A program made the translations under genes and the position numbers. The notes under the pieces are model-generated. The model made no database searches and was not told where the DNA came from. It saw nothing but the letters and a program-made list of their open reading frames with translations. A stretch of DNA of 64,000 bases from a virus. Positions 28,571 to 40,006 of this stretch are shown piece after piece (position 1 is the stretch's first letter; each line of letters opens with the position of its first letter). The DNA lies in IMG/VR virus record IMGVR_UViG_3300048919_000265; one strand, given 5' to 3'.

Positions 28571-30103
28571 TCACTTTATATCAACAACTTCCAACCTTGG
28601 TTTCTTTGCTTGATAAGGCTTAATATGAACAGTAAGACCATCACGCAATAAAGTCTTACTCTCTATTCTGAAACTACTACCCCACATATATTGCTTTCCG
28701 CCATATCTAGTCGTGATTGGAGCTTTCCCATTATTAACCCAAATCTTAGTCAACAAGGCAAACGGAGAATGCACACCAGCAAACTCGTTATAGCGACACA
28801 TATCTTGAATCATCACGCTGTTAGGATTGTTTACATTATGAGGTACCAAAATTGGAGCATTACCCACGCTCTTGATAAAAAATTGACTATCAATCAACTT
28901 TATATAATCTCTAAAATTCGGAAATTCTCTATAATCAACATGTATACCGAACGCAGAATTATGTCCGCCACAATCACAAAATTGCTGAAATAATTCCAAA
29001 TAATTTCTGCCATGCTGATCCCGTAAACTAGCTTTTATATTGCTTCCCGAATCTGCATAGACGATGGCTGTTTTACCATACTGATCGCCCAACTTATTGG
29101 CAACCAATCCAGTATAATTGTGTAGTTTATCCTCCGGTATATCTAGGCTTCTTGCGACAGACGATAAATTACCTAGCACAAAATTATTAAGTACTTCGTG
29201 CTCTATCAAATCTGTTGCTTTCTTCACAGATTCCCTCGATTTAGTCCAAACCTGATCGATCTGTTCAACAATCTCATACATTGGCGTAACTCCAATTCCT
29301 GGACGCCAATACAAGAACTTGTTCAACAGATCAAAGTTTTCAGATCTAAACAAACTATTTATCTTTGGAGTCATCTGAAATTCAATAAATCTTCGAGAAA
29401 ATACACTATAATCGTTCATCAAGTGTTGTACCATCGTAGGCAATCTTAACTGACTGTCTTCCATTGCTTTATAATACAAACTTCTTCCGAGCTTAGAAGA
29501 CATATCAACACAGTCAGCATACATACTGCAAAGGGCCAACGCTGCCAGTCCTCGAGGCTCTGGAGTCTTTAGCTTACGAAGTAGTTTCTCACAAATAACA
29601 TAAGTTAGTGCTCCAGCACTGAGCGTAAGTTCTTCCGTATTAGTACGATTTTCAAAAGTTGTGTTTACCATCGCACCTTCAAAATCAGAATAACTAAAAA
29701 CCGATTCGTGATGATCAATTAAAATTGTTTTGACACCCATCAAGTTCAGCCTGTTTATCACGGCAGGAGACTGAGAGCCTGCATCGCAAATGATCATTAC
29801 TTCAAAATACCCAGTCTTAGCTTTTAACTCAGCAGAGGAATCAATACTATGCGTACGATTACTATAATGAAAAATCTCATAATTTTTAAACTCTAAACGT
29901 TCGAAAGTTTCAATAATAATCTGAATGCAGACTGCCCCATCAGGATCATAATCCCCATATAATAATGTCCTTCTATTGTTCTTTACCACGTCCTCTAAGG
30001 CGTCAATAACCTTATCCTCCGTACTAAGGTAAGGACTCGAATAGGATGGAATATCTAACATATCCATCTTATTCAATTGTTGCAGCGAATAATAAAAATC
30101 CAT
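28571..30103 (-). CDS. recJ: RecJ-like DHH single-stranded DNA exonuclease
   Basis: YGDYDPDG, ICDAGS, IDHHE, LSAGAL, ASLRD and CGGHNSAFG (DHHA1) motifs. Confidence 0.9.
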   Translation of the reverse strand: MDFYYSLQQLNKMDMLDIPSYSSPYLSTEDKVIDALEDVVKNNRRTLLYGDYDPDGAVCIQIIIETFERLEFKNYEIFHYSNRTHSIDSSAELKAKTGYFEVMIICDAGSQSPAVINRLNLMGVKTILIDHHESVFSYSDFEGAMVNTTFENRTNTEELTLSAGALTYVICEKLLRKLKTPEPRGLAALALCSMYADCVDMSSKLGRSLYYKAMEDSQLRLPTMVQHLMNDYSVFSRRFIEFQMTPKINSLFRSENFDLLNKFLYWRPGIGVTPMYEIVEQIDQVWTKSRESVKKATDLIEHEVLNNFVLGNLSSVARSLDIPEDKLHNYTGLVANKLGDQYGKTAIVYADSGSNIKASLRDQHGRNYLELFQQFCDCGGHNSAFGIHVDYREFPNFRDYIKLIDSQFFIKSVGNAPILVPHNVNNPNSVMIQDMCRYNEFAGVHSPFALLTKIWVNNGKAPITTRYGGKQYMWGSSFRIESKTLLRDGLTVHIKPYQAKKPRLEVVDIK

Positions 30104-30131: not shown

Positions 30132-32426
30132 TTACAACCTACCGAGAGCGGAAGATAGGAAAGAACCTCCACCGAAGTCATCGGTATCATCACTCTTCTC
30201 TGTTTTATTGCTAGTATTGAATTCTCCACCAAACACTTCTCCTAAATTAACTTTCTTTGGTTGTTCTTCTTTAGGTAGAATTACAGGAGCCTGACCTCCC
30301 TCTTCTAAAAATTGTTTAGCAATTCTCACATAAGGGGAAGGGTTCTCTACCGGATAAAACATACCTAAATAATCAATAGCTCTTGTAACAGCCACATAAG
30401 CTAGCCGATTTTCCACTTCTGTAATTCTCTCAATTTCCTCAGTAGTTCCAGTTTTAATACCTATTTCCACACTTGGGAAAATTGAAGCAGAAAGATAAAT
30501 CATAAAAACTTTCTTATACTCCAGTCCCTTCAATCCGTGAAAAGTACTTAGTGTCACTCCTGATTCTGCCTGTCTCCAACGTCTAGTTGTTTGTAGTCGA
30601 CTATTTAATTCCTCAGAAAGTTCTGAATAAGTTTTATCGCTCATAAAGAAATCATAAACCCGATCAGTATACATGTTATCATAGTCAATATCATTATTTA
30701 TATGTTCCTTCTTGTAATTCCAGAAGTTTTTCTTAATCATTTCAAATAACTCTGGAAAATAACATTTGACTGGTTCTTTACCTACCCGTGCAGATAGCTC
30801 GAGCAACTTCTCCATTTGTTTAGAGAATGGAGCATAAGTATCATACTTTCCGTAATCTACTGTACGGAAATGTAGTCTAGTATGCTCCTCCGCAAACTTC
30901 CTTTTCTCTGGACTCCATTGCAATATCTCGAATAAATCCTTTGATTTAATAGGAAGTACTTTGTGCAAACAGAGATGACTATGCTGCTCAGCAGGATCAT
31001 ACAACAAGTCTAATACATCTGTCACATGCTTATACAACTCATGCGAAAATGGACTATAACCACTAAGGGTGTTAAACGCTATACCACGAGCCTCTAACAT
31101 CTCAGACAATAAAACAGAGTAGACTTTATCTCGATAACAAATAACCGTATCTAATCTCTCTTCGACAGACATCGATTCTATAATACCAACTAGTCTCTCT
31201 AATTGTCCTTCTGGAGTATTATATGGGAATAGTTCAACTTTACCTCCATCTTTAACAGAGGTTATTTTCTTCCCAAATCTACTCTTATTTTCATTAATCA
31301 CTCTAGAGGCAAGTCTCACTATTGTTTCCCTACAACGGCGATTCCGATTCAACACATAAACTTGTCCGCCTTCGAAGATCTGACTAAACAATAGGACATT
31401 ATCCACATCGGCGCCCTTAAAGGTGTAAATACACTGATCTTCGTCCCCGATTGCAAGCAAGGATTTATTATCGCCAACAATAATTTTTAATAAGCTCATC
31501 ATCAATGGTGTAAAATCCTGAACCTCGTCAGCTACCACATAATCAAAGTAAGTTTGAACTCTCTTCAGCGCTTGCTCATTTGTAGTCCACAACTTGTATG
31601 CCGAAGTTAACATCTCTATATAATCAAACTTAAAAGATTTACGTTTACGTGTTTCATAAACACTAAAAACCTTATCCAACACTTCTGCATCCAATGTTAT
31701 CTCTGGGAAGTTAGCTCTTACCTTTGGATGATTATAATCCATCATGCACTCTTTGCTATAGTTATACAGCGAGAAAAGAGAGTTGAAATCTGGCAACACG
31801 TTCTCTAATTTCATAAAATTAGCAACCATTGGCCATATACTTCTGAGAATATCAACACTTTGATTGTCACTTAAAACCTTAAAACCTGCCATGCCAAGTT
31901 CGTTTGCATATTCAGATCGCCAACGATCACAAAAGGCATGGAGTGTGACGGGATAAATTTCTCTATCAATATCTAGACCTTCCACCCCGCTTGCCATTAA
32001 CTTACCTGCAATTCTACTTTGCATGGCAGCCATTGGTTTTACGTTATGATTATTATACACCAAGCATAACACCCGATTACCATACAATTTATTTCCCGTA
32101 GCAAGTTGATGAATAACTTTTCGTTTAGCAATTTTTGCTTGTGTTTGTGTTGTCTTACCTCCACCAGCAGGAGCTATTATAAGTTGAAATTGTGGCTCAG
32201 CAGTCATAGCTAACGCAGCATCAGGGGACAGATCAAATCCTAATAACTTATAGAAAAGCTTCACTAGATTTAATTGCGCTGCCGGTGCCGGCAACCTACA
32301 GTCATATTGTGGAGGTATATATTTTAAAACATCATCAATGGCCATTTCGTCTATATTATAAGGGGTTACAGTCTCAAATTTTTTACCAATTCCATTATTC
32401 ATTCCCGCTTCTTCCAATGCTATCAC
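30132..32426 (-). CDS. uvrD: UvrD/PcrA/Rep superfamily-1A helicase
   Basis: APAGGGKTT, ADEVQD, GDEDQCIYTFKGA, NRRC, TFHGLKGLEY and RLAYVAVTRA motifs. Confidence 0.92.
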   Translation of the reverse strand: MIALEEAGMNNGIGKKFETVTPYNIDEMAIDDVLKYIPPQYDCRLPAPAAQLNLVKLFYKLLGFDLSPDAALAMTAEPQFQLIIAPAGGGKTTQTQAKIAKRKVIHQLATGNKLYGNRVLCLVYNNHNVKPMAAMQSRIAGKLMASGVEGLDIDREIYPVTLHAFCDRWRSEYANELGMAGFKVLSDNQSVDILRSIWPMVANFMKLENVLPDFNSLFSLYNYSKECMMDYNHPKVRANFPEITLDAEVLDKVFSVYETRKRKSFKFDYIEMLTSAYKLWTTNEQALKRVQTYFDYVVADEVQDFTPLMMSLLKIIVGDNKSLLAIGDEDQCIYTFKGADVDNVLLFSQIFEGGQVYVLNRNRRCRETIVRLASRVINENKSRFGKKITSVKDGGKVELFPYNTPEGQLERLVGIIESMSVEERLDTVICYRDKVYSVLLSEMLEARGIAFNTLSGYSPFSHELYKHVTDVLDLLYDPAEQHSHLCLHKVLPIKSKDLFEILQWSPEKRKFAEEHTRLHFRTVDYGKYDTYAPFSKQMEKLLELSARVGKEPVKCYFPELFEMIKKNFWNYKKEHINNDIDYDNMYTDRVYDFFMSDKTYSELSEELNSRLQTTRRWRQAESGVTLSTFHGLKGLEYKKVFMIYLSASIFPSVEIGIKTGTTEEIERITEVENRLAYVAVTRAIDYLGMFYPVENPSPYVRIAKQFLEEGGQAPVILPKEEQPKKVNLGEVFGGEFNTSNKTEKSDDTDDFGGGSFLSSALGRL

Positions 32427-34057
32427 TCCTGAAGAAATTCTTCTGTTATGTCAAACGACTCCCGAAGCAAGGGGTGAGGTCCTCCAAAAACAGAGATATA
32501 CTTACTTCTTTTTCTAAACTCCTGTAGCTCTATAATTCTACTGAGGCGCTTGACTATAAACGAACGATGTTTATAAGTTTCTTCCCACCATAATCCCAAG
32601 GTTACAAAATTTAAACCTTCCGGATTCAGTAAATAAGGTCCTCTATTATTAAAGTATGAGATAGGTAGACCTAATGCGTGCTGATGGTGATAGGGCTTCA
32701 CGCGAGAAACTCGATATCCTGTCTTTGACACCTCGATAATAGCATTTCTAACAAATTCCTTGAATCCCGGTAAAATATTAATTGGATAAAAAGAAGATAC
32801 ATCATTAATATTAAACGTATGATAAACCCTCGTTAATTCATTGTGTACAGGATACACTAATCCTGGAAGCTGTAAGCTAAAAGAGTCTATGTGGCCTACA
32901 AATTTGACTCCATCACTCTCGAACAGAAATGAATTAGTAACATCTACGGTACTATCAAACTTATTTATCTTGCGCTCTAGTATTTTAAATAATTCTAAAA
33001 GAGCGTCATGCTCAGGTCTAACCAACAGTGGATTTGCATCATTCATATTATATTCGGATTCCAGAGGAATAACATGAATTTTATCTAAATCAAATTCTGC
33101 TTGTTCTACATTAGAAACTTCTGGTAAGTTAGCATCAATATAACTTACTCTTACTTTAGCTCTCATGTCCTGTTTATTCAAGAAAATCAAAAATTGAAAT
33201 CCGTCATTAAATCGCAACATTACGTCCGGCAATTCTAAAATATACTTAAACTGATCTTCAACAAGCATCCTACTTCTATTAAACAACAGCAATGACAGTC
33301 TGTTTAAGAAACTAACAGTGTCATTAAACGACAAATGAGAAACTATTCCATGTTTATAGTATAAATAAGCTGCAACCACTGACACATGCTTTCCACTAGA
33401 AGTAATAAGTACTTCATTACCCGTATACTTAGAAAGTACTTCTTTTTCCAGCTCAGATAATTTCAACATTGTAGCGGAATTGTTGTTATCATAAGCCTCC
33501 GCCAATTTTTCTAACGAGCTTGTTATATCTATAGCCTCTAGGCCTAACTCCACAAGATCTTCTTTAATTCCTTGAATACCGGCCTCTTTACTACGTTGTT
33601 TTTTCAAATCACCGTTAGTGGCAAAAGGTAAACTTTCTGGATAAGCACTTAATATCAAGTTATTCCATTTAACCATTTCCTCATAACTGGTAAAACTTTT
33701 ATTCACCACAAAATAATCAGGTGCGACTCCAGCGGGCATGTTTTCTTTTATAAACTGCTCACATTGATTTAACACTTCCTGATCGTCTTCATCCGGCTCA
33801 ATAAGTAATAAATAGTTACGAGCATCAAGATCGCGTGAAAGTCTAGTCCGATCCACTAAGATTCCGAAGCTTTCATACAATTCCTTATTAGTATCTGATT
33901 CATAACTTTCGAAATCAACTAAATAATTATTAGTTTGGTCTGGATATTTCTTGATGATATTATAAATATGCCTGTGTATAGAATAATCAAAACCTTCTAT
34001 ACTTTCTTCATTTTTTAATGATTTAAACTCTTCCTCAGATATAATGATATCCTGCAA
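32423..34057 (-). CDS. Hypothetical protein (544 aa)
   Basis: Long ORF overlapping the helicase start by 4 nt; no motif recognised. Confidence 0.75.
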   Translation of the reverse strand: MQDIIISEEEFKSLKNEESIEGFDYSIHRHIYNIIKKYPDQTNNYLVDFESYESDTNKELYESFGILVDRTRLSRDLDARNYLLLIEPDEDDQEVLNQCEQFIKENMPAGVAPDYFVVNKSFTSYEEMVKWNNLILSAYPESLPFATNGDLKKQRSKEAGIQGIKEDLVELGLEAIDITSSLEKLAEAYDNNNSATMLKLSELEKEVLSKYTGNEVLITSSGKHVSVVAAYLYYKHGIVSHLSFNDTVSFLNRLSLLLFNRSRMLVEDQFKYILELPDVMLRFNDGFQFLIFLNKQDMRAKVRVSYIDANLPEVSNVEQAEFDLDKIHVIPLESEYNMNDANPLLVRPEHDALLELFKILERKINKFDSTVDVTNSFLFESDGVKFVGHIDSFSLQLPGLVYPVHNELTRVYHTFNINDVSSFYPINILPGFKEFVRNAIIEVSKTGYRVSRVKPYHHQHALGLPISYFNNRGPYLLNPEGLNFVTLGLWWEETYKHRSFIVKRLSRIIELQEFRKRSKYISVFGGPHPLLRESFDITEEFLQE

Positions 34058-34071
34058 ATTTTACACCACCT

Positions 34072-34755
34072 TTAATAATCCGTCACTTCCACCAGAGAAG
34101 TAATTTCAGTCGCATGATTTTTTTCTAATCTGAATTCTCGACGAGGCAAGTTTTTATATCCATCTGCAGATTGTTCTACCATCATTATCTGCATACCTTT
34201 ACTAATAGCCAATTCTATTAACTCCGCCAGTTTACCTAAGTTATCCGAATCACTAGCAGCAAAAGCTTCATCCATTGGAATTATCACACAACCAGCACTC
34301 TCATTTATACCAATAGCACTAGAAAAACTTATCAATTCTTGTAATAATTTTCCTTCATTAATATGTGGTAGACGAGTCCTTCCTTTTTTATCAATAATCT
34401 CTAAGGTTGTTTTAGAGTTACGATTTTTAAAATCACTTTTAACCTTAACTTTAAAACCTTCATACGGAAAAACGTATGAGACATTTTCAGTTATCCGCTC
34501 GGACAAAAACAAAAGACGTCTGTCCTTAAATGCTAAATCTTCGGATATGAACTTCTTATGTAGCCTAACAAGGGCTGTCGCGTAAATATCCGTGTCTCTA
34601 CGCAATTTAGTCGCCTTGCTCAAACGGGCCTGTATCTCTTTTCTTTCACGATTAGCTTGTATCCCCTTCTCGAGAGAATACTGTAAGCTACTTAACTTAT
34701 TCCTAAAGGACTGTAGTATAGCCCGTGAGGCGGTAATATCAATATCAGGCAGCAA
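34072..34755 (-). CDS. C-terminal half of a split Rad50/SbcC ABC-ATPase
   Basis: Coiled coil followed by signature-position NEGKLLQELIS, Walker B/D-loop IIPMDEAFAASD and terminal strand IMMVEQ. No Walker A. Confidence 0.7.
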   Translation of the reverse strand: MLPDIDITASRAILQSFRNKLSSLQYSLEKGIQANRERKEIQARLSKATKLRRDTDIYATALVRLHKKFISEDLAFKDRRLLFLSERITENVSYVFPYEGFKVKVKSDFKNRNSKTTLEIIDKKGRTRLPHINEGKLLQELISFSSAIGINESAGCVIIPMDEAFAASDSDNLGKLAELIELAISKGMQIMMVEQSADGYKNLPRREFRLEKNHATEITSLVEVTDY

Positions 34756-35839
34756 AGTCCTTCCTCCTTATAACAACAATAAATGTCCCATTCTCTAATT
34801 CCAACTGCACAAAAGTTCGCTTTATCTTAATAGTAATAAAGTCATTAGTTATAGCACCTACAACATCTTTCAGAACTTTAGTTGGAAAAACTAGTGTAGG
34901 TATTGCATGTACTGACCCTAGCTCAACTGGTACTGCGGACCCTAATGTCAACTCCTCCAATCCTGAAATTTCGCTTCTCTTTGCGTTGATGGATTCCACA
35001 TCACTATCCACTTTAAATTTAGCAGAAAATCTGATCGACCCTTCCACCACGCGTGCCACCTCTTGCTCGAAATCAAGAACGATAGTATCAGTAAATCCAC
35101 ATGATTTAACTAAGTTACACACATTGGACAACTTAGTCTTCAATTTATGACTATATTTCTCCCTGAGAACCATACTTAAATCGGATTCTATACTAGCCCT
35201 CGATTGCTTAGCAATAATGACTGTATCTTGTCCTCGACCTATTATAAAATTCTGATACCCATAAACATCGTCTGAGAATTTGAGCAAAAAATTAGCAACA
35301 TTGGTATCTAGATTAAAATTCTCGCACCCTGCTTTATAGTACAGTTGCATACCTTTCAATTCTACAACCACCATACCATTATTTACGTTGATAACTGAAG
35401 TTAAATTCTTGATGACTTTTAATGCGCGTTCAACCTTGAATAAATTTATAGGAACAAAATTACCACTGTTCTCCATCAACTCAAGTCTACTATAAATGGT
35501 AGATATGTCACTTGCTTGATAAGTACTATACATATTATACTCTCCACCGCGAGTAGGTTTAATTGTTAATTCAACATTATTGTTTTCCCCGACAAATAAA
35601 TTTACTACACCATCACTGATTAAGGACATAAAATAATTACGGTCAACTCTAACACAAACATTCTCTGTGAAATCCTCTCTAGATATTACCTCTAATGAAT
35701 AGTGAGAGTAAACTTCCACATTATTAGCGATAATCAATACATTATGCTTTAATATTAAGAAATCCAAGAAATCAACTAGTCCTTGTGAAAAGAAAGATTG
35801 TAATTCTCTCGCATTGCGTACATTAAATGTCACCTGCAT
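34745..35839 (-). CDS. Probable divergent DNA sliding clamp (DnaN/beta-like)
   Basis: 364 aa, about beta-clamp size. The N-terminal domain resembles DnaN: MQVTFNVRNARELQSFF; VLIIANNVEVYSHYSLEV; VRVDRNYFMSLISDGVVNLFVGENNNVELTI. Beta-rich three-domain periodicity. DnaX is in the same window. Confidence 0.5.
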   Translation of the reverse strand: MQVTFNVRNARELQSFFSQGLVDFLDFLILKHNVLIIANNVEVYSHYSLEVISREDFTENVCVRVDRNYFMSLISDGVVNLFVGENNNVELTIKPTRGGEYNMYSTYQASDISTIYSRLELMENSGNFVPINLFKVERALKVIKNLTSVINVNNGMVVVELKGMQLYYKAGCENFNLDTNVANFLLKFSDDVYGYQNFIIGRGQDTVIIAKQSRASIESDLSMVLREKYSHKLKTKLSNVCNLVKSCGFTDTIVLDFEQEVARVVEGSIRFSAKFKVDSDVESINAKRSEISGLEELTLGSAVPVELGSVHAIPTLVFPTKVLKDVVGAITNDFITIKIKRTFVQLELENGTFIVVIRRKDFAA

Positions 35840-35841
35840 GC

Positions 35842-36162
35842 TTAATCACCACTTTCACGTAGCAAAAATAATTCTATGTCCTTCAAAACTTTTATGAATA
35901 ATTCCCGGAACTCCTTGTGATACTCTTCTTCTATATAAACCCTATCCAAGTCGTATCCCAGAAGAGTTCTGATTGCTATCCCTTTACTTTCTAAGATTGC
36001 TATTTTATCCTCATTAAAAGCGGCAAAATACTGCTTAAGATCCTCGATTCTTTGATCAGCTTTCAATCGATTTTGATCGCTAAGTGCTTTCTTAGTTGTT
36101 AATTTATGACGTAGTTCCTTAATATTAATCCCACCATCTGTAACATTACTCACCGTTTCCAC
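35842..36162 (-). CDS. Small coiled-coil protein (106 aa)
   Basis: Heptad-rich helical sequence lying between the SbcD-like gene and the clamp-like gene. Confidence 0.65.
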   Translation of the reverse strand: METVSNVTDGGINIKELRHKLTTKKALSDQNRLKADQRIEDLKQYFAAFNEDKIAILESKGIAIRTLLGYDLDRVYIEEEYHKEFRELFIKVLKDIELFLLRESGD

Positions 36163-37283
36163 CGCACTTCCTCTAATAATTTACTCAATTCCCTCTCATA
36201 CGTTGTAAATCCTTTATCCAATAATTCTTCAAAAAGATCCAAATACGCAGGATGGGCAGTAAGAGATATTCTAAGATTCTCTATTGGATCATCCACAACT
36301 GGCACATACTCACCAACGAAGTACTTAGTCTCCTTAGCTTCCATTCGCTTAGATTGCTTCATCTCTATAATTTCTTCGTTAACACAGGCTTCCCTTGGTA
36401 GAAGATCGAACTTGTTATGTTTTATCTCTTTAAGTTCTCCGTCTTCCACAACAACAACTGGAATGTTGCGCTCTAACCTAGCATTGTTAATCTCTAAGTG
36501 GTTTGTTCTGCCCAAAGTAGATAAGTAATGCAGCCAGGTGGAAAAGCCTGTCGACTCGTCTGTATACTTGTATTGTCCATACAGCATATGCATATGCGCT
36601 AAAAATGCGTAATGATATCCCTGCAAAGCCTGTGTGTTATCGAAATAAACAGGGGTATGCTCAAAAATCTTTATACCCATTTCTCGTTCAGAATCTTCTA
36701 GAATAGCCTTAGCATACAGATCCATATGAAAAACGCCAATATTGGTCTTACCATCTAACCGAGGCCTTGTTATTGGACACCCATAATGATTAAATAAAAA
36801 TCGCACATTTCCATCTTCTAATTCATCAACTAATTCAAAAACATTCATTCTTCCTCGTGGTTGCCATATCTTATGGCTAAGACTTTTCATTATCTTAGAA
36901 GACTTTACTTCTCTAATTAATGTCCAGAAAGGATTATCTTTATAATATGTTAATTCGTGATTACCAAGGGTAACATATATACCAGTAACTTCATTCCTCA
37001 ATTGAATCATCTTATTGTTCTCAGAAATTGCCATAAATAAATCATTGTATGATCTATCCCAAATATCCCCTGCAAAAATAGGGAACACTTGATCGGCATA
37101 TTCATAGCAACTTCTATTAATTTTCACTACTTGCTCGAACGCATGTTCCATTTCTTCCAAGTAATTAACTCTGCCATCGAAGTTTTTATTTCTTCTATGC
37201 AAGTCAGTTACTATAGGGTATGCATTGACCGTCAATGTGTTGTACCTCCCCATAAATAACGCAAGGAACTCTTTTCCCGACAC
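36150..37283 (-). CDS. sbcD: Mre11/SbcD-family metallophosphoesterase nuclease
   Basis: TDLH, GDIWD, GNHE, FH and AHMH motifs. True start is probably TTG at 37235 after GGGAGG. Confidence 0.85.
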   Translation of the reverse strand: MSGKEFLALFMGRYNTLTVNAYPIVTDLHRRNKNFDGRVNYLEEMEHAFEQVVKINRSCYEYADQVFPIFAGDIWDRSYNDLFMAISENNKMIQLRNEVTGIYVTLGNHELTYYKDNPFWTLIREVKSSKIMKSLSHKIWQPRGRMNVFELVDELEDGNVRFLFNHYGCPITRPRLDGKTNIGVFHMDLYAKAILEDSEREMGIKIFEHTPVYFDNTQALQGYHYAFLAHMHMLYGQYKYTDESTGFSTWLHYLSTLGRTNHLEINNARLERNIPVVVVEDGELKEIKHNKFDLLPREACVNEEIIEMKQSKRMEAKETKYFVGEYVPVVDDPIENLRISLTAHPAYLDLFEELLDKGFTTYERELSKLLEEVRWKR

Positions 37284-38409
37284 TGTTGATAAAATTTCTT
37301 ATCTCCGATAAATCCACATCGAGTTCCTTGACCGACTGTAGATTTGTATTTGCCTTCTCAAATTCCACATGAACTGGTATGAGCTCCTCATAAATATCAA
37401 GCATGGTTAGAATCGAACCCACATCGGATTTGACAACTTCTGCTTCTAGAAAGGCTGCACACAGATCAACCAACTCTAAACTACATTCCAATTCTAATGA
37501 TAAGTCTGGTAACATTCTACTAATTCCGTCCATTGAATCTTGCATTTCTGCATAAATATCTAAAACCTGTAACAACTCACCCTCATTATTTTCAGAAAAT
37601 AAATACTCACTACCCTCACAAAACAATCTTCCTTCTTCAACAAAATCTAGTAACCAAAGTAAATTATCATAATTCTTGTTATCAAATACAGAATAATCTA
37701 CTTGTTGCATACCTCTATACGCGTCCAGTAAATTTTGATAGGTATCAATTCCTGCCCCCATATTCACAATTCTTTGTGCCAATCTGTCCGTATCTACATA
37801 CTGATAGCTCTTTAATTGATGCTCTAAGCTTAGCACTATATCATCCAACACATGCATATTTTCGCCTTGTAATTTGGATTTCTCTGCAGTAGTGGCAATC
37901 AAATGATTAAGAGTCTCATTACTGGTAAGCAATTTTACCAGGTTATGATTCGCTTTAGTATTACTGTTAACTAATAACAAACTCTGATCTAAATCTAGAA
38001 TATTAGCAATATAAGATTCCTCTGGATCAACAATCAACGAAAGATTCCTAACCATCCTAGGGTCTGGAGTCCGTGACACGGTGAAAGGATGCACATTGAA
38101 TTCCTCGGTAAAATAATATTGAGGACCGTTACGATAAACTTTAACAGCAGCACAACTGTTATCACTAAATAGATATACCGCCATAGCATGATCTGCACCA
38201 AACGCTATCAATTCTCCTAATTCTTTACGAGTATAAAAAGTAGGACAACCTGCTACCTTGAGCATTTTAAAATATACGCTCTTACCTGTATTATTAGGTG
38301 CTGTTATAATATTAAGTCCCTCACTAAATTCAAATTCAACATTACCTAATGATTGACAATTAATTAACCTACATCGGGAAATTTTTACTGGTTTAATATA
38401 ATCTAACAT
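37204..38409 (-). CDS. N-terminal half of a split Rad50/SbcC ABC-ATPase
   Basis: INCQSL...FSEGLNIITAPNNTGKS Walker A, Q-loop LDLDQ and coiled coil; ends at the hook-like PCVIYG...GQC. No Walker B. Confidence 0.75.
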   Translation of the reverse strand: MLDYIKPVKISRCRLINCQSLGNVEFEFSEGLNIITAPNNTGKSVYFKMLKVAGCPTFYTRKELGELIAFGADHAMAVYLFSDNSCAAVKVYRNGPQYYFTEEFNVHPFTVSRTPDPRMVRNLSLIVDPEESYIANILDLDQSLLLVNSNTKANHNLVKLLTSNETLNHLIATTAEKSKLQGENMHVLDDIVLSLEHQLKSYQYVDTDRLAQRIVNMGAGIDTYQNLLDAYRGMQQVDYSVFDNKNYDNLLWLLDFVEEGRLFCEGSEYLFSENNEGELLQVLDIYAEMQDSMDGISRMLPDLSLELECSLELVDLCAAFLEAEVVKSDVGSILTMLDIYEELIPVHVEFEKANTNLQSVKELDVDLSEIRNFINSVGKRVPCVIYGEVQHIDGQCIPYSN

Positions 38410-38500: not shown

Positions 38501-40006
38501 CTATTCGCTCAATTCAATAACTTCTGCATCCAAATTAAGCGTTTCCGGTTTAATCTCTTCAATACCGTCTGTCGCATCAAGTGTCTGACCTGCCGTGCCA
38601 TTCATGACCTCTTCGAGATTTAATTTAGCCTCAGTGGCAGCTTTAGCTTCGTCAAGGCTTCCTGCATCTTTATCGGACATTCCATGCTCCGCAGCAGTAA
38701 TCAAATTCATGACTTCCTCTCCGCCATAAATCAGCGACAAAATATCAGAATTGCTTTCCAGAACTTTCTCAGTCATAAAAGTATTTTCCAACTCTTTATT
38801 AGCATCAACAGCAGCCAACAATTTCTTCTCAATAGTTTCGTCAAATTTACGAATATAAACTGAATACATAAACTGACTTTCCATATCTTGAGATTCATCC
38901 AGAGCTTGTCTAACTGCTGTAACAAACTTATCATAGAACGCTTCATCTTTCAATTTGGAATCAGCTATAGCATAGCGAGTTCCTTTACCAATTGCCATAG
39001 CATCATTTGGATCATCAACTGTAACCGGACAAATCATATCCAACTCTAAGAAATCCCAATGAATATCATGCTTATTTGAAGTGCCGTTAGTAAAGTTAGC
39101 AAAAGGCTCATCAAATTCACTGGTCTTCTTAGTAGTATGGTACAATTTCTTAACTTCTTCAGCCGTGATAGTTTTATACATCTCACTATCTTTCAAAGTC
39201 AAGTCGTTTTCCAGCAGCATAGCCATTACAACCATATAGTTAGAAGGTCTATCTTCACTAATGATGATTTCATCATAAACTTTCTTGATATTATCTTTAA
39301 AATCCTTTTCAAGAATGTTAGCCAAATCAGGAGCCGTCTTAAAGAAAGGAATATTAGTTTTCAGCTCATATGGTTCACCAGCTTTAGCCTTTTCAATACA
39401 ATCTTCAATATTAACTCTGTGTTCATACGCAATATCTCGATACAACTTATGCACCTTGAGTGCAACAGGCCACTCACCAATAACCTGATTCGTGACAGGA
39501 TCACGATCAACTTCAATCGCATAATCGTTAGCATACTGATTACCTGTAATACGTGGATCTGAAATAGAAACAACTGGGACCGTCATGATTCGTGGGAATC
39601 TGTATAACCGGAAAACTTTCCAATCTTCTTTCGTAAATACGGTATAATCACTTGTATTCCATTCGTCAACACCTGAACGACGCATCAAGGCCTTCTTGGT
39701 AATTTCACTCTTCTCTGCCATACGTTTAACAATCAACGCAGCAGAAGTTGCAGAAATCGGTGGACGCCATTTATTATCTTCATTCCATTGTTCGTTTGCT
39801 TCACCTGTACCTGGATCAAAATCCAGTGCAAGATCCATAATAACTAGAATCTTCTCGCGCAATTTAAGCGCACGTTTAATTCTAGGCAACCGCTTCAACT
39901 GGATTCTAGACTGGGCTTTCTCATTCCGTAATTTTAATGCAGAAGAAGGCTTAATCTTCCCCGCATCCATATCCTCAAAAATCTGATCAATCAAACTCGA
40001 ACTCAT
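38501..40006 (-). CDS. Abundant orphan protein with acidic C-terminus (501 aa); candidate ssDNA-binding/recombination protein
   Basis: Strong RBS AGGAGGT, own terminator, acidic tail (EEIKPETLNLDAEVIELSE); sits between the primase and Rad50/Mre11 genes. The function is inferred. Confidence 0.55.
   Translation of the reverse strand: MSSSLIDQIFEDMDAGKIKPSSALKLRNEKAQSRIQLKRLPRIKRALKLREKILVIMDLALDFDPGTGEANEQWNEDNKWRPPISATSAALIVKRMAEKSEITKKALMRRSGVDEWNTSDYTVFTKEDWKVFRLYRFPRIMTVPVVSISDPRITGNQYANDYAIEVDRDPVTNQVIGEWPVALKVHKLYRDIAYEHRVNIEDCIEKAKAGEPYELKTNIPFFKTAPDLANILEKDFKDNIKKVYDEIIISEDRPSNYMVVMAMLLENDLTLKDSEMYKTITAEEVKKLYHTTKKTSEFDEPFANFTNGTSNKHDIHWDFLELDMICPVTVDDPNDAMAIGKGTRYAIADSKLKDEAFYDKFVTAVRQALDESQDMESQFMYSVYIRKFDETIEKKLLAAVDANKELENTFMTEKVLESNSDILSLIYGGEEVMNLITAAEHGMSDKDAGSLDEAKAATEAKLNLEEVMNGTAGQTLDATDGIEEIKPETLNLDAEVIELSE

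Follow-up and report, generated by a model that had tools for sequence, protein, structure and literature searches.

Organization of the locus

The subject of this analysis is a putative Mre11-Rad50-type DNA-end-processing system in the virus record IMGVR_UViG_3300048919_000265, whose Rad50/SbcC-like ATPase appears to be encoded by two separate genes. The stretch analyzed, called below the window, comprises 64,000 nucleotides drawn from a 212,527-bp contig; it is AT-rich (35–41% GC), and its open reading frames (ORFs) of at least 120 amino acids (aa) are located nearly all on the minus strand. Between positions 34072 and 38409 of the window five minus-strand ORFs follow one another end to end, each with a Shine-Dalgarno-like sequence ahead of it (Table 1): an N-terminal half of the ATPase (N-half), a metallophosphoesterase, a small helical protein, a clamp-like protein and a C-terminal half of the ATPase (C-half). 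All five were located in the order given in a preliminary description of this region, which had been made from the nucleotide sequence without database searches.

Two of the start sites deserve mention. The TTG at 37235 of the metallophosphoesterase gene is preceded by a GGGGAGG ribosome-binding site and corresponds to the start of the homologs; a gene that begins there shares about 30 bases with the 3' end of the N-half gene. The TTG start of the C-half gene is placed eight bases past AAGGAGG, a strong ribosome-binding site, within the end of the clamp gene.

Table 1. Genes and sequence features of the split ATPase locus and of the genes following it (positions in the window)
Feature	Position	Strand	Remarks
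Putative Rad50/SbcC N-half	37204–38409	-	401 aa; ABC (ATP-binding cassette) N-lobe, helical arm and C-terminal Cys motif
Walker A, NNTGKS	38278–38295	-	N-half residues 39–44
Q-loop, DLDQ	37984–37995	-	N-half residues 139–142
Hook-like Cys motif	37222–37263	-	C383-x2-Y/H-G387-x-V-x6-C396, N-half C-terminus
Putative Mre11/SbcD-type metallophosphoesterase	36150–37283 (longest ORF)	-	377 aa; probable start TTG 37235; helical C-terminal tail
Small helical protein	35842–36162	-	106 aa
Three-domain DnaN-type beta sliding clamp	34745–35839	-	364 aa; by predicted fold
Putative Rad50/SbcC C-half	34072–34755	-	227 aa; N-terminal helix of ~90 aa and ABC C-lobe
Signature-like NEGK (NEGKLLQELIS)	34327–34359	-	C-half residues 133–143
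Walker B and D-loop, IIPMDEAFAASD	34249–34284	-	C-half residues 158–169
H-loop position, MVEQS	34168–34182	-	C-half residues 192–196; Gln195
Orphan	32423–34057	-	544 aa; directly after the C-half gene
UvrD-like helicase	30132–32426	-	764 aa; Pfam UvrD-helicase in related loci
DHH/RecJ-like protein	28571–30103	-	510 aa; Pfam DHH in related loci

Two ATPase genes with complementary motifs

The Walker A motif, the Q-loop and the cysteine-rich end of the N-half, all of them noticed in the preliminary description, were located, the last reading CVIYGEVQHIDGQC at residues 383–396 near the C-terminus. Residues G42, K43, S44 and Q142 were invariant among 21 sequences. A family profile built from 15 sequences ranked Rad50 N-lobes first (E = 1.9e-6 to 2.5e-5), with OLD, SMC, RecF and AriA all behind them, and the protein matched the Pfam family AAA_23 at E = 9.5e-6. 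In the AlphaFold2 (AF2) model, blocks of the lobe reached a predicted local distance difference test (pLDDT) value of 93, while the arm was poor, with low confidence at residues 240–330 (overall pLDDT 69.9, predicted template modeling score (pTM) 0.39); the monomer model was not used for deciding the arm topology. The modeled lobe resembled the N-lobes of SMC, Rad50, RecN and RecF heads with Z scores of 9–10. Judged by this predicted fold, the N-half is a member of the SMC/Rad50 superfamily, within which its sequence profile and its nuclease partner point to Rad50/SbcC. The lobe is followed by a putative helical arm (residues ~165–377) with a hypervariable acidic stretch (~240–335). No Walker B motif (hhhhDE) was found in the protein sequence of the N-half.

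The C-half supplies what the N-half lacks. Its signature region and its Walker B motif with D-loop lie in register with those of Rad50, in agreement with the earlier reading of this gene. A profile of 31 sequences matched Pyrococcus furiosus Rad50 at E = 5.1e-4 (profile positions 10–217) and Thermotoga maritima Rad50 at E = 6.6e-4; Rad50 accounted for all of the best eight matches. In the alignment with the P. furiosus protein, seGk...LISfs stands opposite LSGGE...LAFRL, lylDEaf opposite LILDEPT and QiilieQ opposite QVILVSH, which places Gln195 at the H-loop histidine. Among the 31 members G135, D162, E163 and Q189 were invariant and Q195 nearly so. The signature of the family is a variant, S/N-E-G-K, and the H-loop position is occupied by Gln in 29 of the 31 members and by His in the other two (P0043 and P0044), which bears out the Gln reported there previously. 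The single sequence produced sub-threshold matches to SbcC_Walker_B (E = 0.003) and to the last 200 profile positions of the SbcC-like PHROG 77 (E = 0.005). In the ESM Atlas the C-half matched unnamed clusters of similar size only, mostly labelled viral, and no P-loop was found in its protein sequence.

The Walker A motif is thus confined to the N-half and the hhhhDE motif to the C-half, and neither protein could work alone as an ABC ATPase. Their sequences support the view that the two genes encode complementary halves of one Rad50/SbcC-type ABC ATPase.

Conservation of the split

Twelve related loci with DNA (L001-L009, L011-L013) and one ENA contig listed without DNA were compared; they come from independent samples and include one isolate of Clostridium paraputrificum. 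All related loci examined had the five genes in unchanged order at 26–59% identity. The genes were contiguous in nine of the loci with DNA and in the ENA contig. Both ATPase halves were present in every locus, the finding on which the pairing proposed in the preliminary description depended, and they were separated by three genes or more in each case, so that both lobes on a single chain were never encountered. The N-half homologs (20 clusters, 27–42% identity) measured 376–446 aa and the C-half homologs 219–260 aa in 29 clusters, with 209 and 210 aa in two further loci. Since the split is conserved across the related loci, the stop codons are real, as had been supposed, and a frameshift or an assembly artefact was ruled out on the same grounds. 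A search with the C-half profile among longer proteins (456–2000 aa) revealed no fused relative, which is weak evidence. Nothing similar was found among the INPHARED phages (DNA and protein), the PLSDB plasmids (protein) or in IMG/VR (peptide patterns). The element may be either a phage or a plasmid.

Some of the related loci had additional features. In L008 and L009 the stretches L008:409-4499 and L009:879-4242 contained genes for a deoxynucleoside kinase, a helix-turn-helix regulator, a DUF1653 protein, a Fic protein and others; such accessory genes inserted between the N-half and Mre11 genes indicate that this site is an insertion hot spot. In L004 an extra unrelated ORF of 108 aa (L004:8684-9010) was present between the Mre11 gene and the gene for the small helical protein. 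A relative of the whole cassette was found in the 188,469-bp sequence NZ_CACRTV010000057.1 (L011) of the cultured C. paraputrificum isolate, which makes this isolate a candidate host and offers a strain for work on the system.

The metallophosphoesterase

The second gene had previously been assigned to the SbcD/Mre11-type nucleases. Its membership in the metallophosphoesterases is clear from the match to Pfam Metallophos (28.7 bits against a curated cut-off of 21.5; E = 2.2e-6) and from the presence of all five motifs of the calcineurin-like phosphoesterases, which were located as TDLH, GDIWD (consensus GDIFH), GNHE, NH or FHxD, and AHMH, with the motif residues invariant across 7–10 homologs. 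The finer assignment to Mre11/SbcD is weaker. One of seven family members matched the SbcD-like PHROG 100 (E = 2.5e-5) and one of seven the NCBIfam model Mre11_Halo (E = 0.0077), and in an hhalign comparison with T4 gp47 the motifs I–III aligned at a probability of only 14%.

The cysteine motif and the length of the arms

In Rad50 the zinc hook is formed by two cysteines per chain which are given to a shared zinc site. The CxxC form of the hook was not found in the N-half family, which has C-x2-[Y/H]-G-x-V-x6-C at its C-terminus with both cysteines invariant, as well as G387, among 21 sequences (C383 and C396 in the N-half of the window). The earlier description had likewise given CxxY in place of CxxC. 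The segment CP[IV][YH]G resembles a hook, T4 gp46 having CPTC, and in the AF2 model the motif forms a small three-strand beta motif.

The same description had placed the split at the hook, and in this respect it could not be confirmed: the arms are unequal and their lengths do not co-vary. From the lobe to the Cys motif the N-half arm measures about 215–280 residues (236–266 from the Q-loop to the first Cys), compared with only about 90 in the C-half. The length differences among the N-halves are concentrated in the acidic, poorly conserved stretch at ~240–335, and at the two extremes of 376 and 446 aa the small protein and the C-half measured 94 and 226 aa, and 95 and 219 aa, respectively. 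This absence of co-variation with the partners argues that the variable stretch is self-contained. The apex of the arm may therefore be located inside the N-half. One reading which fits the numbers is that the arm ascends at residues ~165–297, turns in the variable region and descends at 330–377 and further in the C-half helix; the ascending part would have about 133 and the descending part about 138 residues, close to the arm implied by the T4 gp46 hook at residue 288 of 560. On this reading the chain would break, and the Cys motif would sit, at a point along the descent of the arm. The numbers are also compatible with an arm that is fully extended and pairs with the C-half together with the small protein, these two partners adding up to roughly 188–209 residues.

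The clamp and the small helical protein

The 364-aa protein of the window matched no Pfam family; five of its 141 relatives matched PF00712 weakly (best E = 0.0016), and the family profile found a beta clamp among PDB sequences at E = 0.11 only. Clustered at 50% identity, the family comprises 192 representatives. The AF2 model made from 141 sequences had a pLDDT of 93.1 and a pTM of 0.87, and Foldseek returned at least 500 matches at E ≤ 0.001; those listed were all bacterial beta sliding clamps, and the PDB matches among them spanned the full length (E about 5e-15, template modeling score 0.60–0.67). By its predicted fold the protein is a three-domain DnaN-type clamp, in accordance with its earlier description as clamp-like.

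The metallophosphoesterase and the C-half both end in short conserved tails, L-x-x-h-x-W (36153–36170) and [VI]-x-D-[YFI] (34075–34092), respectively. From their sequences these could be clamp-docking peptides, although neither fits QL[SD]LF, the usual clamp-binding consensus.

The 106-aa protein occupied the same position in all loci, with a length of 94–106 aa in the relatives and a weakly conserved sequence. It had no Pfam or PHROG match and no usable match in the ESM Atlas. As judged by eye from the family alignment, it would be helical in two stretches, with a conserved Gly-containing segment between them.

Proposed mechanism

Taken together, the locus probably encodes a DNA-end-processing nuclease of the Mre11-Rad50 (SbcCD/gp46-gp47) type with a Rad50 produced as two polypeptides. 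The N-half would provide the lobe with Walker A and Q-loop and most of the helical arm, and the C-half a helix of ~90 residues and the lobe with the signature, Walker B, D-loop and Gln H-loop. An antiparallel coiled coil between the C-half helix and the beginning of the N-half arm would join the lobes into one ABC head, and two such heads would sandwich two ATPs as in ordinary Rad50. A dimer of the Mre11-type protein would dock at the heads and the coil base and supply the nuclease, while the two invariant cysteines of the N-half probably link two complexes via a shared metal site, like a zinc hook. The complex would open or trim DNA ends, which the UvrD-like helicase and the RecJ-like exonuclease from the downstream genes would then resect, and the resection would serve to repair the element or to replicate it by a recombination-dependent route. 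The operon's beta clamp would be the DnaN-type clamp of the element, with tethering or stimulation of the nuclease as a possible further role. We infer in this scheme assembly in trans, metal binding, enzymatic activity and the link to the clamp.

The P. furiosus Rad50 heads with two chains are co-expressed fragments that reassemble, the split having been made artificially. Their N and C parts were deposited as chains of their own (1f2t_A/B, 1ii8_A/B, 3qkr_A/B), which indicates that the lobes need no covalent link. As to the clamp, it may simply be the replicative clamp of the element. A link between clamp and nuclease is worth attention because of the fixed place of the clamp gene in the operon, the neighbouring T4 genes for gp47, gp46 and gp45, and the stimulation of P. 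furiosus Mre11-Rad50 by PCNA (proliferating cell nuclear antigen), which binds Mre11 and stimulates cleavage by the nuclease (PMC6009593).

Several observations weigh against this scheme. The arms of the two halves are very unequal; the match of the C-half to Rad50 is modest (E about 5e-4 with the 31-sequence profile), and its single-sequence Pfam match is below the curated cut-off. The H-loop histidine is important for hydrolysis in ABC ATPases, and with Gln at this position, to judge from the sequence, the ATPase may be slow or may bind ATP without hydrolysis. Two loci, L008 and L009, have 5 to 10 unrelated genes between the N-half and phosphoesterase genes, although the block of phosphoesterase, small protein, clamp and C-half is still intact there. 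As to the phosphoesterase, five of seven family members weakly match PdeM, its family profiles matched no PDB sequences even at E ≤ 10, and its placement with Mre11/SbcD rather than with another phosphoesterase, such as PdeM, relies on weak matches and on context.

Alternative explanations

One alternative is a Rad50 in three or more pieces, in which the break comes right after a true apical hook and the 106-aa protein joins the N-terminal helix of the C-half in building the descending arm, both pairing with the long N-half arm. The position of the motif at the very end of the N-half and its likeness to CPxC(G) would suit such an arrangement, the lengths sum roughly (236–266 residues from Q-loop to Cys against the 188–209 of the small protein plus the C-half arm), and the small gene is always present between those for Mre11 and the clamp. 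What makes it unlikely is that the N-half varies by 70 residues while the partners stay at 94–106 and 209–260 aa, again without co-variation, and that the small protein, instead of forming one long helix, is interrupted midway by a conserved Gly-containing break. A bolder version, in which the arm is built from three chains (N-half, 106-aa protein and C-half), the two-cysteine hook has been relocated and the whole is physically coupled to the clamp of the element, is in our view quite unlikely; if true, it would be a clamp-tethered, non-covalently closed and naturally 'nicked' Mre11-Rad50 machine of multiple pieces.

The remaining alternatives question the existence of a common head. The halves might act in different complexes, or the ATPase might be a member of a different SMC-like branch (RecN, RecF or a defence type), with a phosphoesterase that is no equivalent of Mre11; the N-lobe fold fits SMC, RecN and RecF heads as well as that of Rad50, and the PdeM matches, the lack of a match of the phosphoesterase to Mre11 structures and the isolated position of the N-half gene in L008 and L009 are in line with this. 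Yet neither half alone can bind and hydrolyse ATP, Rad50 ranks first in the profiles of both, the two genes co-occur in every locus examined, and they are surrounded by genes for replication and recombination and not for defence, which makes such a reading improbable. The same context gave no support to the role in DNA defence that had been considered in the preliminary description, and the interpretation as a defence system was dropped for lack of it. That the two ATPase genes are decaying, functionless fragments of a broken sbcC is hardly credible, even if a broken gene is the commonest cause of two partial ORFs of one family: three other conserved genes stand between the halves, a strong ribosome-binding site precedes each of them, the catalytic residues are invariant in both at 26–59% identity across 13 loci, and no intact copy was seen among the longer proteins.

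Comparison with known systems

The two-polypeptide Mre11-Rad50 system proposed here resembles T4 gp46/gp47 in that a mobile element carries, close together, the genes for a coiled-coil ABC ATPase and a phosphoesterase nuclease, with small ORFs between them and a clamp gene in the same string (gp47, gp46 and gp45 are neighbours). The signature of gp46 (gene 46, L010:9303-10985) is SEGE and not the usual SGGx, similar to the S/N-EGK found here. In contrast to the present system, gp46 is a single chain of 560 aa with a CPTC hook (GGLCPTCLS) at residue 288 and a His at the H-loop position (ISHKD) instead of Gln, and the T4 clamp is of the trimeric gp45 type and not of the three-domain DnaN type. 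When the three families were compared with the single gp46 and gp47 sequences by hhalign, the expected motifs aligned, but at probabilities of only 3–20%.

With bacterial SbcCD and archaeal Mre11-Rad50 (for instance P. furiosus Rad50, PDB 3qku, 1ii8 and 1f2t) the system shares the order of the motifs, the spacing of signature, Walker B and H-loop and, in the form proposed, a head of N-lobe and C-lobe on an antiparallel coil and a phosphoesterase nuclease partner; it differs in having the lobes as separate products, C-x12-C for CxxC, Gln for the H-loop His and unequal arms. The likeness to the archaeal Mre11-Rad50-HerA-NurA operon consists in an end-recognition nuclease encoded with a helicase and a second nuclease for resection, except that these are UvrD-like and DHH/RecJ-like proteins here and not HerA and NurA, and that the clamp belongs to the bacterial beta type; no motif for binding the clamp was recognized. 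The conserved clamp gene in the operon would be the bacterial-type counterpart of the archaeal PCNA-Mre11 link.

Current models of Rad50 and SMC proteins rely on a coiled coil that is continuous and foldable, and on a ring that is closed, for transmitting the ATP-driven movements of the heads and for holding DNA. A chain whose break, inside the arm or at its end, has persisted over deep divergence offers a natural test of which of these features are needed, and the Gln H-loop and the relocated cysteine pair add to the value of the family for this purpose. Homologs of SbcCD are nearly universal in jumbo phages (PMC7824862), and fusion proteins of Mre11 and Rad50 are known from Mimivirus (R555) and its relatives, viruses and plasmids (PMC3175470). 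The latter are likewise a rearranged architecture of the complex, but there two subunits have been fused, while here one subunit has been split. A literature search revealed no published report of a natural split of Rad50/SbcC, and none of these genes is mentioned in the Inocle paper. Annotation pipelines will miss the module because four of its five proteins fall below family cut-offs.

Neighbouring genes

In the related loci which extended far enough past the C-half gene the same order recurred, namely an orphan of ~550 aa, a UvrD-like helicase and a DHH protein. Alongside those for Mre11-Rad50, the UvrD-like and DHH/RecJ-like genes look like a full set for end resection, and by analogy with the archaeal operon they suggest a resection module, of which the 544-aa orphan may be a part. 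No match to the orphan was found in Pfam, the PHROGs or PDB sequences; it occupied the same position in all related loci (512–667 aa), with a conserved FGGPHP motif near its C-terminus. On the other side of the locus, a protein of 501 aa is encoded just upstream of the N-half (38501–40006, minus strand), and a gene for 453–536 aa was present at the same upstream position in the nine loci with DNA in which the N-half adjoins Mre11.

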